NCBI GenBank assembly: GCA_036172245.1 | Contig: JAYWIR010000003.1 | Location: 248,001-312,000, forward strand | Origin: Raillietiella orientalis | Lineage: Eukaryota | DNA length: 64,000 nucleotides | Direction of reading: 5' to 3' | Shown here: piece after piece, positions 27,726 through 51,639 of the stretch | Layout of the letters: every line of letters begins with the position of its first letter | Position numbering within the stretch: position 1 is the stretch's first letter | The notes under the pieces: model-generated | Told to the model about the DNA's origin: nothing | The model's input: the letters and a program-made list of their open reading frames with translations, nothing else | The model's database searches: none | Program-made: the position numbers and the translations under genes

Positions 27726-27950
27726 CTGTCCTTGTTTTTGCGATTGTCGTCAGTCGTCGTCTTCAGAGTTGCCCTCCTTGCTGTCCTTGTTTTTGCGATT
27801 GTCGTCAGTCGTCGTCTTCAGAGTTGCCCTCCTTGCTGTCCTTGTTTTTGCGATTGTCGTCAGTCGTCGTCTTCAGAGTTGCCCTCCTTGCTGTCCTTGT
27901 TTTTGCGATTGTCGTCAGTCGTCGTCTTCAGAGTTGCCCTCCTTGCTGTC
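27726..27950. repeat. Minisatellite: 4 perfect copies of a 55-bp unit plus a 5-bp partial copy
   Basis: Unit ctgtccttgtttttgcgattgtcgtcagtcgtcgtcttcagagttgccctccttg starts at 27726, 27781, 27836 and 27891. Confidence 0.97.
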
Positions 27951-30900
27951 TTTGGCTTTTGCAGTTGTTGTCGTCGCCGCCGCTATCGTTATTGCTGTTG
28001 CTCTTGTCGTTATGAAAGGGAGTCTGTGCTTCACGGGACACAAGGCAGACTTACAAGAACTCTCTGGCTTCGCTCCAGGTTCTAAAATACCAGCTGAGCG
28101 CCTGCTCGTCTCGCAAGCGGAAATACTCCAGAGAATCCCCCATGTCTTGTTTCGCGGGTGCCCTATTCCCTAATCTCGGTCCGACATCCGCGAGAGAGCA
28201 GCAGCACTTTCTTCCGAGTTCCTGCGCTCCTCCGACTCTTGGAAGCACGAACCACCGCACGTGACCCGTCACGAGCCAAAACCCACCTTCCGCCGGCTCA
28301 TGCTCTGCTCGGTCTGCGAAAGGCCGTCCGTCAGTCACGCACGAACAATGCGGCATTGTCGATCCTCCAACAATCGGAACGCTCGAGTGGCTTCGACGCT
28401 CACCAGTCCGATCGAAGTTTTTGGTCCAGAGTCACGTGATCGAAAATCCTCCTTCGAATTGGACTTCTGGTTGCGCGATGGACCGCAGCAGCAGCTGCTC
28501 TTCAGAATGCGCCTTCAAGGTGAGCTCTTCCCTCTGCTTGCAAGGAAGAAAGAAAAGAAAAATGGACTGGACTGTGGAGGACGCAGTCTCTCGCTTGGCT
28601 GCCGTCTATCGAAGGGTGCGACCTTCTTCCCAGCCAGCCTAAAGTCCTCCAGCACATCAGAGCCATTTCGACCAAGACCATCGACGTCACAGGGGATGCA
28701 AACCCTTCTGTAGACTGAACCACGGCTTATTAGGTATCCGGTTCCTTGGTACTCGGTCACGGAAGGATGCTCGCGTCCTGCATCACGGACGACGTCTGGC
28801 GATTATTTCGGTTGCATCATCTCGAGTCCAAATCCGTTTATCAGAATGAAGATTCAATCCGATGACGATCCACAGCTCGGGAGGAAAAAACCGGAAGGCG
28901 TGACATTTCGTTTTCCTAAGGCAACAATGGAAGCGTGTGTGTTTTCCCGGGGTTGAGTGTACAAAGTATCACAGCAACAATTGTGTACACATAGCAAGAG
29001 TTAGGTTCGCTCAGGTCAAAGAAAAACAGTCAAATCAGAACACAGTGGCTTGGGGCCGTCTCACTCTTCGTGTGCACGATACGGCGGCTAACTGCAATCG
29101 CAGCAGCCAAATTTGCCTAGCAGATTCTGTAACATTTCTCTGCCTTCCCCTCTTGCCTCCCCCAACAGTCTACTGTGGTATCCTCTTGCGTCTGTGCCTG
29201 GATGTGGTAAGCTCACTTTACCTGCTCACGGAAAGGCATGCGGAATCTCATAACCGCCTACGAGTAAGATCAGATTGAAGAACAATGGTCAGCAAGTAAT
29301 TATTTCGAAGATGAACGCGATTTCCACCTTTTTCCTTGTACTTCCATACACTAATCATCCACGATGTTTTCTTAAGTCACCTCAACACCAAACTCAGATC
29401 TTCAGGTACGAACAAAGTTACGCTGAATCTTGAAAACTCAGAGGAATGAGTTCCGTGTTTACTAATTCTGCTAGTGTTACTGCTATTAGATGATGATTAC
29501 CGAGTCGCATACGCTCTGCATCACCTTTACTGTCATTACGGGGCTCCTTAAACGGTTTAAAGCACCTTTTTCACGTGGGTCCCCTTTTCCGATTCCAGAA
29601 GTGGGTGACCATCCACCGATGTACATTCGATGAACCTAGACGTCAAGACCTCTTATCATTTCGAAAAGTAACTGGAATTCTGACATGTGAGAACAATCCC
29701 CAAAATGTTGCCAATGTGTTAAACCCTGGTAGACAAGGGCTTTCGTGCCAAAAAAAAAGAGCAGAGGTTTTGATAACTTGGTCCGACTGCTTCCACGTGA
29801 TTCGTTCTTGTAAGCCAGATGAGACCACGAGAGAATGCGCGACTGCTTCGAAGAGGACTTATTTTTCAGCCGCCTGCGTGAACCGTGCATTGTCTTTCAG
29901 GGCACAGTAATACAAATTCCACATGTAATGTAGGATTATGTGCTCGCAAGAGCCGTTACAGGAAGCAAAGTGTTCGTGTTGCACGGCACGGCACGGGTCA
30001 CGGGATTGCGGAGGATCGAGGAGGATGTGTATGGAAGCCCCCCCCCCCTGTTGATCCCGGCTCACGCGCACGGGAAGACATGCAATGGGTGAAATTCCAG
30101 AGCTTTGCAAAACGAATTTGTTAATTTGCCTCGCAGTCATCTGAGGCACATGTAAAGTAAAATGGTGATGATTTCGTGTCCGTGCACTGCCCACACGAAG
30201 GAAAAATCTCTATGAGAATTGAACTTCTCTATAAGAACCGAAATCTTGGAGGTATCACAGCATGAATCACAAATGTGATGCTGTTTATGTTCTTACTGGA
30301 AGAGATCGAATTACTCTGAAGAAATGTTAAATTATGATACGCTTTTACAATGAAATTCCGATAGCAGCTACTACAGAGGGGGGGAAAACACACACACAGC
30401 TACGCAAAAGGAGAATAACTTCTCGCAAACTCCTAATCAATGGGATGCTGATTCTGAAAGGACCCTTAGTAATTTGATGAGGAAGCCTGTGAGGAAGATG
30501 AGGAATTTCACATTTTCGTGGCAACACACACGATGGGGCTTGAGAGCCTTTGGAGGGCACGGATACAAGGGGACATGGCAAAGTAATACGTCAAGTCCAT
30601 CCAGACATTGGTCCTCAGCAGCTGTACTTGGATCTTTGTGAACTGTGCACTAACTTTATCCAAAATCATATGCACATACGTTATCCAGCGTTAACATGAA
30701 AGAAATGATGGAAGGAATAGTCTTCACTGCTTATAAAGTAATTAAATTTAAATTAAATATTAATTGAACTTCTCATTAGAACACCATCCACAAGTACCAG
30801 GAATTGGTTGCATCCATCAGATTTAGAAACTCCCATCATTGGATTACCATTAATTCTTAATTAATGGTTATCCATGCAAAAATTACTTCCAAATGTGTGA

Positions 30901-31573: not shown

Positions 31574-32244
31574 TCAAACTTCGTAATCATCTCTCTGAAA
31601 ATCACATCAGCATTTACAATCCACAAGCTAACCCACCATTTCATTATATTCAAGCACATGACGTCTAATCGCAGAACTATCCACCCATGTGATATAATCT
31701 TCTAAATTCCTTGGCACCAAAACTGCGGGATCTGTTACCAAATCTGGTCCAATGCGTACATGGCCTTGTTCAATAAACTGTGTGGCCATACGGACCGTGG
31801 GAGCCATTTTCAACCGCAACATAATCACGGGAAGTCGACGGCGGCAGAAACTGGATGCAGATACATTGTTACACAACTGAAGATTCAACTTTGTGGGAAT
31901 CAGTCCTAACGGATACCTAATCACTTGAAAATTTTTCGGGTTACTGTTTAAAAACTTACAATTTGTTCAACAGTAAGGCACTGGCTTCAACACGAAAATT
32001 ATCCTTGGGATCCAAGTCGTGAATTAAACGCGCCAGTTCCCTAATTTCCCTTGATAATTTGTTATACCTGCAAAACTTGAAGGAACGCAAACAAACGCGT
32101 TTCTACTCACGCTGTGTAATCCTCGCGGTTCTGGATGCAAAACCTTCGCATAATTTTAACTTCCTTCAAATTCCTATCAACCTCCCAATTAATGAAATCC
32201 ACTTTTTTCAATAACTTCTTTTCATGATATTTCAGCTTCCTCAT
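31574..32244 (-). CDS. IMP3: U3 snoRNP protein IMP3 (S4 RNA-binding domain), 180 aa
   Basis: Exons 32244-32111, 32067-31960, 31916-31637 and 31594-31574 (543 nt); introns 43, 43 and 42 nt. [20 protein letters not shown]...[18 protein letters not shown]...[14 protein letters not shown]...[11 protein letters not shown]...[28 protein letters not shown]. Confidence 0.97.
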
Positions 32245-32363
32245 ATTTATGCAACTTTCGTGGGTTTTACTGTCACGTTCACACGTATCCCAGACGAGAG
32301 TCCACACAGCATTACCACTGAACATTGCACAAATATAGGAAAATATACCTCGTTACTCGCAAG

Positions 32364-33938: not shown

Positions 33939-35377
33939 GTATGGATTTATAGATTCTTCACCAGATAGTCCACGCTGGAATTGGAATCACTGCTGTTCCT
34001 TTGACAAATTGGTGGATGGAGAAGCTTATGCGTGCTGCTTTCTTCGATGCTGTCGGAATGAGTGCAATTTCTCTTCTCGGTGCTAAAGGAAAGCAGTAAA
34101 TTATGTTGTTGTCTTCGTTTTTACATAGGTAAACCAATAGGTCTATCGTGAAGCGGAGGGTGAGAAATACCGCCTTTCAGACGGAACAGGGGAATTTCTC
34201 GAGTGAAAACGTGGGCAAATGCTGTTCACGGAACGGAAGTACCACTCTGCCTGAAGTGACAGCCAAGTCATCCTACAATTCAACTGTTTCGAGAGTTTGT
34301 GCGTAAAAAGAAGTACTGTTGTATAGAGTCCTGTCAGAGCTTTATTCTCCAGCGGCAAATGCTGGTATAGGAGGGAACTAATCTTCTATGTATTCATTTA
34401 GGCAAAACTTGCTTTATATTACTTAAACATACCGACATCTCTGCCTACTATGGAAAATGCACATGAGGGAAATTCACAGTTTATAGTGGTTACACCAGAT
34501 TAAGGAGTTAAAGTTTAGATAACGTGTAAAGCAAAGTTGGAGCAACTATTTTTTTTTTTACATAGCAAGTGTGAATAAACGTTTGTTTGTTTATTTTTTT
34601 CGAAGCAAAAAGTTTGCAAATAGTTTTATTAAGATGTGAGGAGTTATTCTTGAGAACATAAAATAAATCTTTCAAGATAAAATGAGATTTCTGCTGTTTA
34701 CGAAAAAAAAGGAATTTTTCCATCTTTGAAGTCATAATCACATCCTCCGGTTGCAAAAATTTGAATGGTAATGAAAACTTTAATGCTGTGCTTGAGCATC
34801 ATTCTACAGCTATACAGTTATTGCTAAATAACATTTAAAATGTTTTAATCTTGCGAAACATCAATTTGATAATGAAGTAGAGTTAATGGCATCATTTTGG
34901 TGTTTGATTGAGAATATTGCTTTCATTTGGAATGTGTACTGATAGGCTTGTATGGAGATATAGTTGGAATAAGTGGCAAAATGCGGTAACGTGAGCTTAC
35001 ACGAAGATCGAAATTGTATTTCAATTTCATGTAAGTCTATATTTGGGGGAATAATGACTGTTTCTTGTGACCATTTTTCTAAAGTAGGTCCCCACTTATA
35101 TTAGTATAACTCGGTTTATTTATGCCACGATCGTGGTCTTACGAGAAAAATTTCTCATCGATGTTTCCGTATTGCGGCCCCGTACTTGGAATTTGGAACG
35201 CATCCCCAACCCCAGAATAAATTATCTTCCTTTAGAGTTTGGAATATATGTATAAAAAAAAAGTAAAAGTCAGTTGAGTGAATTTTGACGATAGTAGTTC
35301 TGAATGTGTAATTATCTATATTGAAAATCTTAAATCAAGGTAGTAAGTATAGTATGCACTAACTGTGTTAGTACGGA

Positions 35378-35806
35378 ATGAGTACGAATGCAGCTGATAC
35401 CAAAGAGGAGGTGTCAAAAGTTGAACAATGGAACCAGATTCTTCAAACATCCATGCCATCAGAATGGAATCAGAATCAGACTGTGATCAAAAAACTCATG
35501 TCAAACCCTCTTGTGCCACTGGGGATGCTGGCAACAACAGGTACATGAATGCTCTGAAACCCATCATTTCTGAATTTAAATTTTATTACAGCAGCCTTAG
35601 TGATGGGTTTAAGAGCTATGATGCAAAACAATCCCCAGAAATCTCAACTGATGATGCGTTTCAGAGTAGGAGCTCAAGCATTTACGATTCTAGCAGCCTT
35701 AACAGGGATTTTGATAGGATTGACCCCACCTCCAGGGCTTTCCAGGAAGAATGCTGCAAAACAAAGACAACAAGAATCGATGCAACAGAATCAGCATGTA
35801 CCTTAG
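35378..35806 (+). CDS. HIGD2A: HIG1-domain protein (HIGD2A/Rcf1-like mitochondrial inner-membrane complex IV factor), 125 aa
   Basis: Exons 35378-35540 and 35592-35806 (378 nt), 51-nt GT..AG intron. Product MSTNAADTKEEV...KKLMSNPLVPLGMLATTAALVMGLRAMMQNNPQKSQLMMRFRVGAQAFTILAALTG... carries the HIG1 hallmarks NPLVP.G...T...L..GL and SQ.MMR.RV.AQ.FT, with two hydrophobic segments. Paralog assignment (2A vs 1A) tentative. Confidence 0.92.
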
Positions 35807-36996
35807 AACCACATATCTCACAGTGTGAGCAGGGCACAGTGCTTCTAAGTTTTACATCAGATCATGTCACTGACCCCGTAGGAAATCAAACTGAAATAGC
35901 AAATGCATATGCAAGAGAACAAGACAGTTTTCAAATGGACGCAGAGAAAGATGCACTGTTGGAGTTTAACGATGTAAAATCTGCTGATACAACAGATGAC
36001 TGGAAAAATGTACAGAACTCAGATTTGCCATCACAAAATCTTGCAAACTTGTCGAATTCACAAGAGAGAAAACTCATTACTGAGCCACAAGAAAACCAAG
36101 CAGGAAGTTGGAGTCCATGCACAGAACAGCATCAGCAAGATGCAAACAAGGAAGAAAAAGTGACTGTCTCCATGCCTTCAAGTATGGGATTGCTGCTTTT
36201 GCAAGAATATGATAGTGAATCCGAAGAGAATGTGACCGTGAATGATTCACTTACATGGCGTGAAACAAATGAAGAGTGTGAACCTGTTTCTTCCCAAAAT
36301 GATGAGAGTGATTTGGATGAACCAGTAATGAGAATTATGCCTGTTCATGTTCCATTAGAACCTCCCCCTCGCACCAAAGGGGAATTATTACCTGAAGATC
36401 TTCCTCCCATTGAGCAGTTGCGTATTTCGGTTTCCTCTCAAGAATGTGCATTGTTAGGAGAATTGAACAGTATTGTTGGATCTCTGGTTGTAGTGGCAGC
36501 CTTACCAGGAACTCCAGCATTAGATTTGGATTCGGTTCTGTTTATTGAGGAAGGAAAAATTGCATTAGGCAAAGTGTTTGATGTGATGGGACCAGTTGCA
36601 AGGCCATTTTATGTTGTGCGTTTCAACAACACTGCAGAAATTCAAGAATTGGGTCTTGCTCCCGGTGTGCCAGTATATTATGCTCCTTATAGCCCATATG
36701 TCTGTTATGTGTTTTTGGAACACCTGCAACAAATAAAGGGTAGTGATGCATCATGGGAAGATAACAACGAACCACCACCCCAGTTCTTGGATTATTCTGA
36801 TGATGAAGAAGAAGCAAGATCTCGGAAGAGAAATGAGCTAACAAATAAACGCAAATGGGAGGAGCGTGGTGCAGATCCCCGAAACCTGCGTTACCTGGGT
36901 CCAACCCAGGAAAATACTCCGCAGTTCACTTTGTCATGCCCATCACAAAGCGGGCCACCACACTCCCTACTATTCTCCAGCATGACATTTCATTAG
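35428..36996 (+). CDS. NAF1: H/ACA ribonucleoprotein assembly factor NAF1 (Gar1/Naf1 domain); 522 aa unspliced, 505 aa if 35541-35591 is spliced
   Basis: RTKGELLPEDLPPIE, LDLDSVLF, LGKVFDVMGPVARPFYVVRFN and KGSDASWEDNNEPPPQFLDYSDDEEE are NAF1 motifs, preceded by a long acidic N-terminus. True start uncertain (35428, 35545 or 35935). Confidence 0.93.
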   Translation: MEPDSSNIHAIRMESESDCDQKTHVKPSCATGDAGNNRYMNALKPIISEFKFYYSSLSDGFKSYDAKQSPEISTDDAFQSRSSSIYDSSSLNRDFDRIDPTSRAFQEECCKTKTTRIDATESACTLEPHISQCEQGTVLLSFTSDHVTDPVGNQTEIANAYAREQDSFQMDAEKDALLEFNDVKSADTTDDWKNVQNSDLPSQNLANLSNSQERKLITEPQENQAGSWSPCTEQHQQDANKEEKVTVSMPSSMGLLLLQEYDSESEENVTVNDSLTWRETNEECEPVSSQNDESDLDEPVMRIMPVHVPLEPPPRTKGELLPEDLPPIEQLRISVSSQECALLGELNSIVGSLVVVAALPGTPALDLDSVLFIEEGKIALGKVFDVMGPVARPFYVVRFNNTAEIQELGLAPGVPVYYAPYSPYVCYVFLEHLQQIKGSDASWEDNNEPPPQFLDYSDDEEEARSRKRNELTNKRKWEERGADPRNLRYLGPTQENTPQFTLSCPSQSGPPHSLLFSSMTFH

Positions 36997-37024
36997 TGAA
37001 TTAAACGTGGATATTCTTATAAAA

Positions 37025-50214: not shown

Positions 50215-51639
50215 ATGGCCTCCGTTTGCCCCCTAACGTTTCAAACACTTCTGTGTCTGCTTGTTGCGCTGTGCACGGAAAGGGGTAAGTTTTATTGACA
50301 GATGCGCGCGTGTTTCCAAGGGAGTGTTTGCCAGCCACTCCCTGGCTCTTGCCTAATCGGTCTGTCCGAGAAAAAAAAAAAAAAAACGAAACAGCATCTC
50401 AAGTACCAGTGCTGTGATGATGATCTGTTTTTTCACTTTTGCTGTACGTCTTTAGGAATGTTGCGTCCATACACATCGTGGGCACAGAGTAAATAAATGG
50501 AAGTCGGGAATTCGATGCTTTTGTGTCCGAGAAGCATGCTGACTGACAATGCGCAGACACACAAAGCAGTAGCTGCTGCCGAGTCCAAAAAACATTACAA
50601 GTATCGTTGAAGTGCTAAACTGTGGTTTTGTTTTGTTGTTTTTTTTTTTTTTCTTCACCTTTTTGAACGGCATACTTGTGATTTTGTTTTTGAGGAAAAG
50701 CATGCTCCCTGCCCCCATGTAGATCTACTTGAGGGACGTTCATTGTACGCACTTCATCCTTCATCCTCAAGTCTCTTGATCTTTTGCCTAGTTGCTCCTC
50801 CCGGATATTCCCCGCTATCATTACCGTATATAATATTTTGGGGATGCATGCGGAGCATAGTAATCAGATTTTCAGAAGATCTCCACCAGTAAGTATTTTA
50901 GTTTGAGCTAGGTGGCTTCAGCATTTGCTTCAGCATATGTGCATATATGAAAATGATGTGATTTGTAGCATGCTGTGATTTTTGGTTTCGATTATTGGGC
51001 TACTTTCATATCTGTAACCCAATTTTTTGCTGGAAAGTAAATATGTGTGCGCGCGTGTGTGTAAGTTTCCTGCAGATGTTTTTGCATTCATTACCTTGCT
51101 TCCCTCATGCATCTTGAATATTCATGAAAGGTGTTCAAGATTCCCTGAAGGAGAATCTGAAGGCTTGTTTTAACACATTTCATAAAGATGCGTTATGAAA
51201 TGTGTGACATGAAACTTACTGTTTTTAAAAACTGATTTCACTTTTAGCAAGCAGCCTGCTATGTTACAAATGCAACTCAGCTCATTTCTTGAATGGCTCA
51301 GAATGCCTTGACCCATTCCCTCCTATGGACAGAAAGCATTTCCTTGTCGATTGCTCAGCAGAACATCCCAACTCCACTTATTGTCGGAAACAACATCAGC
51401 AATGTGAGTTGTTCTGTTCTTTTCTTCATCTGTAGTTTTTAGTTGGAGAAAATTTGCGTGTGATAAGAAGTTGTGGATGGGAGGAGGACCGTTCAGAGCA
51501 CAACTGTTACTTAAATCCATCTGAAAATTATCAGATTACTTACTGTCATTGCTCTGAAAGTCTTTGTAACACTGCCCCAATTTTGGAATACTCAATGGCA
51601 TTAAGTGCCCCAATCATACTCTTGTTAGCATTTCTGTGA
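50215..51639 (+). CDS. Ly6/three-finger GPI-anchored protein (crok/crim/quiver-like group), 140 aa
   Basis: Exons 50215-50284, 51248-51403 and 51443-51639 (423 nt). Signal peptide MASVCPLTFQTLLCLLVALC; LLCYKCNS...CLDPF...FLVDC...YCRKQHQQFGENLRVIRSCGW...CY...YCHCSESLCN (10 Cys); hydrophobic tail ALSAPIILLLAFL*; AATAAA at 51790-51795. Confidence 0.9.

Follow-up and report, generated by a model that had tools for sequence, protein, structure and literature searches.

Described two-protein mRNAs and the HIG1-NAF1 locus

In mammalian dual-coding genes, such as the GNAS gene for XL-alpha-s and ALEX, two long frames on the same strand of one mRNA are read from nearby AUG codons, and in most known overlaps one of the two genes is old and the other young. 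Here we describe a locus in a stretch of 64,000 nucleotides (nt) from Raillietiella orientalis (contig JAYWIR010000003.1, positions 248,001 to 312,000; the whole stretch is called the window below, and positions are counted from its first letter), where a gene for a HIG1-domain protein overlaps the reading frame of NAF1. Members of the HIG1/HIGD/Rcf1 family are proteins of the mitochondrial inner membrane that associate with complex IV, and NAF1 is an assembly factor of H/ACA ribonucleoproteins (RNPs), which binds dyskerin/Cbf5 and is later exchanged for GAR1. As in the GNAS-type genes, the two frames of the locus would start from nearby AUGs in different frames. In those genes, however, one of the two frames is usually young and lineage-restricted, whereas both families are ancient here, and, unlike in the GNAS-type genes, only the variable N-terminus of NAF1 overlaps the conserved HIG1 domain.

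The sloth1/sloth2 mRNA of Drosophila is bicistronic and encodes small mitochondrial proteins, and leaky scanning on it was shown with reporters (PMC9681215). The mRNA proposed here resembles it in that both are nuclear mRNAs of arthropod type with a small mitochondrial protein of the respiratory chain encoded in the upstream frame; the start context of that frame in sloth1/sloth2 is weaker than the downstream one (PMC9681215). The sloth frames lie 5 nt apart without overlap, whereas the frames described here overlap by 328-379 nt, and sloth1 and sloth2 are paralogues that act in one complex and whose linkage is widely conserved, whereas HIG1 and NAF1 are unrelated and no relative with this layout was found (PMC9681215).

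A second comparison is offered by the polycistronic nuclear mRNAs of green algae, in which the protein ratio is controlled by a Kozak-like context (Gallaher et al. 2021, PMC7896298). The likeness would consist in one capped mRNA with a small upstream gene, which in the algae is often mitochondrial. The algal cases differ in belonging to another kingdom, in the conservation of many pairs between species, and in the proof of the transcripts by Iso-Seq, chromatin immunoprecipitation (ChIP) and proteomics, whereas the present locus is known from sequence alone (PMC7896298). Our literature search never found NAF1 and HIG1 together, and NAF1 was found with HIGD2A only in papers that were off-topic as judged by their titles. 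The type of mechanism is already known, and the HIG1-NAF1 pair appears to be new.

A HIG1 gene and a NAF1 frame overlap on the same strand

The homology and frame evidence presented below indicates that one DNA stretch probably encodes parts of two old proteins, HIG1 and NAF1. The elements of the two genes are as follows:

35378..35540, forward strand: HIG1 exon 1, beginning with ATG 35378 and comprising 54 codons and the first base of a split codon
35541..35591, forward strand: HIG1 intron of 51 nt, GT..AG, phase 1
35592..35806, forward strand: HIG1 exon 2, including the stop codon at 35804-35806, with most of the HIG_1_N domain
35422..35424, forward strand: in-frame TGA that closes the NAF1 frame on the 5' side; one codon separates it from ATG 35428
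35428..36996, forward strand: NAF1 frame of 522 codons with the stop codon at 36994-36996, readable without need for an intron; start context ACA-ATG-G
35428..35806, forward strand: putative dual-coding overlap, in which NAF1 occupies the +2 frame with respect to HIG1
35807..35934, forward strand: spacer from the HIG1 stop to the next in-frame ATG of NAF1, open in the NAF1 frame only and free of poly(A) motifs
36451..36690, forward strand: Gar1/Naf1 RNA-binding core, NAF1 residues 342-421 (Pfam PF04410, E 3.6e-17)

The spliced HIG1 coding sequence is 378 nt long (125 codons and a stop codon). An in-frame stop codon lies two codons 5' of its ATG, the stop-to-stop frame opening at 35372, so that an earlier HIG1 start in exon 1 is impossible. 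The HIG1 exons were scanned one by one against Pfam, and exon 2 alone matched PF04588 (HIG_1_N) over profile positions 15-51 of 52 with an E-value of 7.2e-12 and 45.8 bits (cut-off 22.4). The exon 1 frame matched a profile that we built from HIG1 homologues (E 0.0018), with the end of exon 1 corresponding to the domain start. Removal of the intron restores the HIG1 frame, and the domain start is thus contributed by exon 1 across a canonical GT..AG intron; by eye, the last residues of exon 1 match the N-P-[LF]-V-P-[IL]-G block of the homologues.

A HMMER search with HIG1 exon 2 among 1.84 billion representatives yielded 13 homologues at E<=0.001, which came without names or gene context and were used for profile building only, while a word search with the same exon gave zero candidates. 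Exon 2 is preceded by 55 amino acids here, and in five homologues it aligns from residue 54-61. Alignment of HIG1 with 11 homologues (alignment A2, 12 sequences) revealed 9 invariant columns, namely G, Q, M, R, R, Q, F, T and A. Among the invariant positions are exon 2 residues Q18, R22, R24 and Q28, which make up the Q-x3-R-x-R-x3-Q motif of Rcf1/HIGD2-type members. As judged from the Pfam match and from homologues sharing nine invariant columns, HIG1 is a genuine gene.

The match of NAF1 residues 342-421 to the Gar1/Naf1 family scored 62.4 bits against a cut-off of 29.3. Among the best 120 of 160 database matches, the named ones were almost all called NAF1 and came mostly from arthropods; a single JGI entry among the matches listed carried the name 'rRNA processing protein Gar1'. 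The closest of the 160 matches was 60% identical over 34% of the query, i.e. over the core only. In an alignment of 12 NAF1 proteins, 48 columns were invariant, nearly all of them between residues 316 and 462, and all were kept in the sequence studied here. The NAF1-specific block that follows the core, consisting of S-D-A-S-W (S439-W443) and Y-S-D-D-E (Y456-E460), was invariant in the 12 proteins, and the translation contained no RGG run. By its core domain, its named matches and the NAF1-specific block, the predicted product of the frame is NAF1, not GAR1.

An earlier, sequence-only reading of the window had placed a spliced HIG1 at 35378-35806 and the NAF1 frame at 35428-36996, with an overlap of 379 nt and an in-frame TGA just before ATG 35428. 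Our coordinates and the Pfam matches agree with this description in full, and the TGA was located at 35422-35424. The overlap measures 379 nt in the genome and 328 nt after splicing.

The NAF1 frame is open through HIG1

Upstream of ATG 35935, 169 codons of the NAF1 frame are free of stop codons at a local G+C (GC) content of 41.6%. The sequence-only reading had correctly counted zero stops in this segment; its expectation of roughly 10 was too high, only about 6-7 being expected. For the spliced overlap, the expectation is 3.2 stops when the HIG1 protein is left unchanged; further stops, derived from probabilities of an open frame, P(open), of 0.064 and 0.25, amount to ~2.7 in the 42 spacer codons and ~1.4 in the intron codons, respectively.

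HIG1 codons create a stop in the NAF1 frame only where a third-position T is followed by a codon that starts with AA, AG or GA. T was found at none of the 19 HIG1 codon ends at risk of creating such a stop and at 23 of the 90 others (Fisher one-sided p=0.0068). Under synonymous permutation, in which the HIG1 protein was kept fixed, the NAF1 frame was open in 1.3% of 20,000 and in 1.26% of 40,000 permutations, exon 1 by itself having a P(open) of 0.21 and exon 2 one of 0.069, and it was open in 1.1% of trials when codons were drawn from pooled usage. The third frame of the overlap contains 13 stops. In the spacer, the NAF1 frame has no stops in its 42 codons and each of the other two frames has three (shuffle P(open)=0.064). 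The intron is likewise stop-free in the NAF1 frame (P(open) 0.25 for the intron-spanning codons), and its length of 51 nt is a multiple of three, so that splicing leaves the NAF1 frame undisturbed. The combined chance of openness is 0.0126 x 0.064, or ~8e-4, with the intron length not yet counted. It is thus unlikely that the NAF1 frame is open through HIG1 by chance, and both the permutations and the avoidance of T bear out the earlier claim that it is held open beyond chance.

The composition of the translated overlap was compared with that of its surroundings. Translated in the NAF1 frame, the overlap yields a product with 19% acidic, 26% Ser/Thr and 71% polar residues, and residues 169-310, just upstream of the core, are 22% acidic, 17% Ser/Thr and 70% polar, whereas the acidic share is 2% in the third frame and 5% in HIG1. 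The overlap product therefore resembles the acidic, polar pre-core stretch of this NAF1 itself, unlike the third frame or HIG1. The 18 residues that span the intron in the NAF1 frame are 56% hydrophobic and net basic, unlike their surroundings, indicating that NAF1, too, is probably translated from a message that has lost the intron. The training set of a codon model comprised 212 codons only (36358-36993); this model scored the NAF1 frame best in the spacer (-0.13 versus -0.46 and -0.64 bits per codon). Over the overlap it gave about equal scores to NAF1 and HIG1 and a clearly worse one to the third frame. Within the overlap, constraint on the HIG1 frame follows from homology, and the signs of coding in the NAF1 frame are stop avoidance (p about 0.007-0.013) and composition only.

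A possible bicistronic mRNA read by leaky scanning

Four further elements bear on how the two frames could be expressed:

35245..35275, forward strand: candidate core promoter with an A/T-rich, TATA-like run at 35245-35262 and TCAGTT at 35270-35275, ~105-130 nt 5' of the HIG1 ATG
35388..35486, forward strand: 32-codon stretch of the third frame, opened by the sole ATG that separates the two start codons; its context is poor, with C at both -3 and +4
35935..35937, forward strand: rival NAF1 start, Met169, in the context CAA-ATG-G (C at -3)
37000..37030, forward strand: poly(A) signals 3' of the NAF1 stop, ATTAAA at 37000 and AATAAA at 37025

The candidate promoter was read from the sequence by comparison with the consensus of the TATA box and of the initiator (Inr). 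It is separated from HIG1 by two tiny upstream ATG frames, at 35304 (6 codons) and 35354 (2 codons). The start contexts are GGA-ATG-A for HIG1 (G at -3, A at +4) and ACA-ATG-G for NAF1 (A at -3, G at +4). Between the HIG1 ATG and ATG 35935 there are 19 ATGs (17 after splicing). Since a single weak ATG precedes 35428 and 19 precede 35935, leaky scanning on a shared mRNA can reach the former but not the latter, and a start at 35935 would therefore need its own promoter inside HIG1.

Five poly(A) motifs (AATAAA, ATTAAA, AATATA, AGTAAA and TATAAA) were searched for between 35300 and 37200. AATAAA occurs at 36732, 36844 and 37025 only, ATTAAA at 37000 and TATAAA at 37018. None of the five motifs was found between 35300 and 36732, hence none between HIG1 and NAF1, which means that a HIG1 mRNA ending at such a motif must carry most of NAF1. 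The earlier statement that no AATAAA separates the genes and that the one at 37025 is the first after both is correct; the two AATAAA inside the NAF1 frame had been missed. From the poly(A) signals of NAF1 and the stop codon of a convergent QVR/Ly6-like gene downstream, the end of the NAF1 mRNA is expected near 37045. A scan for bacterial-type sigma-70 promoters and terminators, irrelevant to a eukaryote, found 6 against 6.4 expected in shuffles.

From these features we infer that leaky scanning on a single transcript leads to initiation at AUG 35428. Transcription would start ~100 nt upstream of 35378 and end near 37045, so that HIG1 and NAF1 share one mRNA. Ribosomes starting at the first AUG of a long frame, 35378, would make, after removal of the 51-nt intron, the 125-residue HIG1, a predicted two-helix protein of the mitochondrial inner membrane of the Rcf1/HIGD type. 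Ribosomes that skip AUG 35378 and the weak AUG 35388 would start at AUG 35428 and read the +2 frame into a NAF1 of 505 or 522 residues, the first ~150-170 of which would form an acidic, polar extension overprinted on HIG1. The ratio of HIG1 to NAF1 protein would then be set by the start-codon contexts. We hold the chances to be about even that this is a lineage-specific dual-coding locus with one bicistronic mRNA read by leaky scanning.

The sequence-only reading had gone further, suggesting that the arrangement ties respiratory-chain assembly to H/ACA RNP biogenesis. Such a coupling is unsupported, as nothing points to a functional link between HIG1 and NAF1. The layout may instead reflect gene packing, or the capture of the HIG1 promoter by an intron-less copy of NAF1.

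Conservation and alternative explanations

Several observations weigh against a bicistronic, dual-coding locus. NAF1 residues 1 to ~310 align with no other NAF1 in the 12-protein alignment; a protein-atlas search with residues 1-169 gave no usable match. Conservation of the overlap, which the sequence-only reading had proposed to look for with tblastn in related genomes, was not observed: among 63 NAF1 loci from metagenome contigs, none of them a close relative (best identity 56%), a HIG1 domain was found in none, either by tblastn at E<=10 or with the HIG1 profile. In tblastn with both HIG1 exons and two N-terminal pieces of NAF1, nothing in the 63 loci fell below E 1. The HIG1 profile, run over 9,974 six-frame open reading frames (ORFs), recognized the window's own two exons only, the best other locus having an E-value of 1.7; the profile contains exon 2 of the window, which makes that positive control circular. 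In 21 of the 23 loci checked, an in-frame stop lies upstream of the NAF1 frame, and the frame runs off the 5' end in the other two. The layout is, on this evidence, lineage-specific at best. The pre-core length of the relatives is 56-340 residues, mostly 100-340, as compared with ~310 from Met1 and ~141 from Met169 here, so that either start would be compatible with the N-terminal lengths of the relatives.

Expression poses a further difficulty, because AUG 35388 and the two upstream mini-frames would cut the flow of ribosomes to AUG 35428. Moreover, the convergent stop codons of NAF1 and the QVR/Ly6-like gene are 62 nt apart, which points to tight gene packing and makes a promoter inside HIG1 conceivable. 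The small training set of the codon model also counts on this side, and a chance of ~8e-4 carries modest weight given that the finding was selected in a very large scan; we regard the statistical evidence as solid but not overwhelming.

The alternative that survives best, though we consider it unlikely, is that of two ordinary adjacent genes, with a transcription start of NAF1's own inside or just after HIG1 exon 2 and translation from Met169, the 169 upstream codons being untranslated and open by chance. The ~141 pre-core residues that Met169 would leave lie within the range of the relatives, the extension has no homologue, packing is tight at the 3' end of NAF1, and none of the 63 other NAF1 loci shares the layout. 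The number of stops to be explained away is also smaller than the 10 first expected. Openness by chance, however, has the low probability given above once the HIG1 protein is taken into account, the absence of T from every risk site would have to be a coincidence, and so would the NAF1-like acidic composition of the product and the best codon score of the spacer in the NAF1 frame. Nor does HIG1 have a poly(A) motif of its own before 36732, and ATG 35935 has C at -3.

Less likely again is that the DNA is dual-coding but is expressed from separate mRNAs, either through a dispersed promoter, with some transcripts starting at 35391-35427 so that AUG 35428 comes first, or through operon-like spliced-leader trans-splicing. 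The open-frame statistics fit this explanation as well as they fit a bicistronic mRNA, and the cost of skipping two AUGs disappears. Spliced-leader trans-splicing occurs in some crustaceans, and a barnacle and branchiopods are among the best named matches of the neighbouring gene IMP3; the best named identities are, however, only 60% for NAF1 and 74-77% for IMP3. No poly(A) motif is available to end the upstream HIG1 message, and reading the sequence by eye revealed no obvious acceptor directly before ATG 35428.

The weakest alternative, which we consider very improbable, is that one partner does not work (NAF1 being a young intron-less retrocopy in the 3' region of HIG1, with the real NAF1 elsewhere) or that a HIG1-NAF1 chimera is formed via the exon 1 donor, as has a precedent in Su(var)3-9/eIF2-gamma: NAF1 is without an intron over 1569 nt, whereas HIG1, IMP3 and the QVR-like gene have introns and ten other NAF1 loci (L045-L054) show a core match spread over 760-2260 nt, which we take as introns, and its C-terminal tail is short in comparison with the 11 aligned NAF1 proteins, but the 522-codon frame is intact with 48 of 48 invariant columns kept, and neither a target-site duplication nor a poly(A) remnant flanks NAF1. 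In a direct-repeat scan of 35200-37200, which gave 16 short families, the only pair flanking NAF1 was D12 (11 nt, 91%); it is at chance level, since ~16 such matches are expected in 2 kb by our estimate. The contrast between NAF1, which lacks introns, and its neighbours, which have them, suggests that NAF1 arose by retroposition or by the loss of introns.

The HIG1 intron

Read through the intron, the HIG1 frame meets a stop codon (TGA 35546), whereas the NAF1 frame stays open. If the locus yields one dual-coding mRNA, the intron might act as a switch on it, such that the spliced form gives HIG1 and NAF1 and the retained form gives NAF1 only; we consider this very improbable. Retention would cut HIG1 to a 56-codon upstream frame ending at TGA 35546 and would leave NAF1 in frame with 17 extra residues, and it would be governed by pairing of the intron with either of two segments of exon 2. 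If the switch were real, the removal or retention of one tiny intron would decide how much of a respiratory-chain factor is made relative to a nucleolar factor of RNP assembly.

As to the pairing itself, intron positions 35544-35566 are complementary to exon 2 positions 35601-35623 (23 nt, 83%), and an alternative pairing is offered by 35552-35567 with 35651-35666 (16 nt, 94%). In the minimum-energy fold, intron and exon 2 are paired with each other, which leaves the 3' splice site in a loop. The folds of 35530-35680 (z -1.43) and 35272-35480 (z -1.68) were not significant.

Genomic neighbourhood

The window is a GC mosaic, in which stretches of 60-66% GC (1-28000 and 40000-45000) surround an island of 37-45% GC at ~30-38 kb that carries every recognizable gene near the locus. 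No coding was recognizable in the GC-rich stretches, and Pfam had no match for any of 25 long ORFs taken from them and from elsewhere outside HIG1 and NAF1. A tandem repeat at 27726-27976, with a 55-nt unit in 4.6 copies (96% match), lies at the edge of a GC-rich block. Two neighbouring genes were recognized:

31631..32352, reverse strand: IMP3 (U3 small nucleolar RNP), with several exons, 3 kb upstream of HIG1 and divergent from it
37058..37060, reverse strand: stop codon of the QVR/Ly6-like gene, convergent with NAF1

The best named matches of IMP3, 74-77% identical, are from barnacle, tick, amphioxus and thrips, and branchiopods are also among them. The top-scoring match, an IMP3-like database protein of 151 residues (P0137), has an internal duplication of the S4 region that inflates its score, and it is no close relative of the IMP3 of the window. 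The NAF1 and IMP3 matches place the source among arthropod-like organisms, and the databases searched yielded no close relative of it. Two nucleolar RNP factors, IMP3 and NAF1, thus lie within one AT-rich island of 6 kb.

On the other side of the locus, AATAAA signals stand back to back, that of NAF1 at 37025 on the forward strand and that of the QVR-like gene, seen as TTTATT at 37041-37046, on the reverse strand; the two 3' ends should overlap by ~25 nt. Weaker QVR/Ly6-like ORFs were found at 37899-38339 (reverse strand) and 51229-51636 (forward strand), with Pfam E-values of 1e-5 to 9e-4, below the curated cut-off. The stretch near 51 kb with QVR-like ORFs has 42-49% GC. These similarities suggest a small local QVR/Ly6-like family.

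Implications

Confirmation of a shared HIG1-NAF1 mRNA would by itself show no link between respiration and H/ACA RNP assembly. It would, however, provide a rare animal case of two ancient, unrelated families that use over 100 codons of the same DNA, each in its own frame. It would also show how annotation mishandles such a locus, as automatic pipelines would be likely to fuse the two genes or to shorten NAF1 to a start at Met169. Finally, if confirmed, the locus would be a test bed for how a conserved membrane-protein domain tolerates a second reading frame, and for how the context of a start codon sets the ratio of two proteins.

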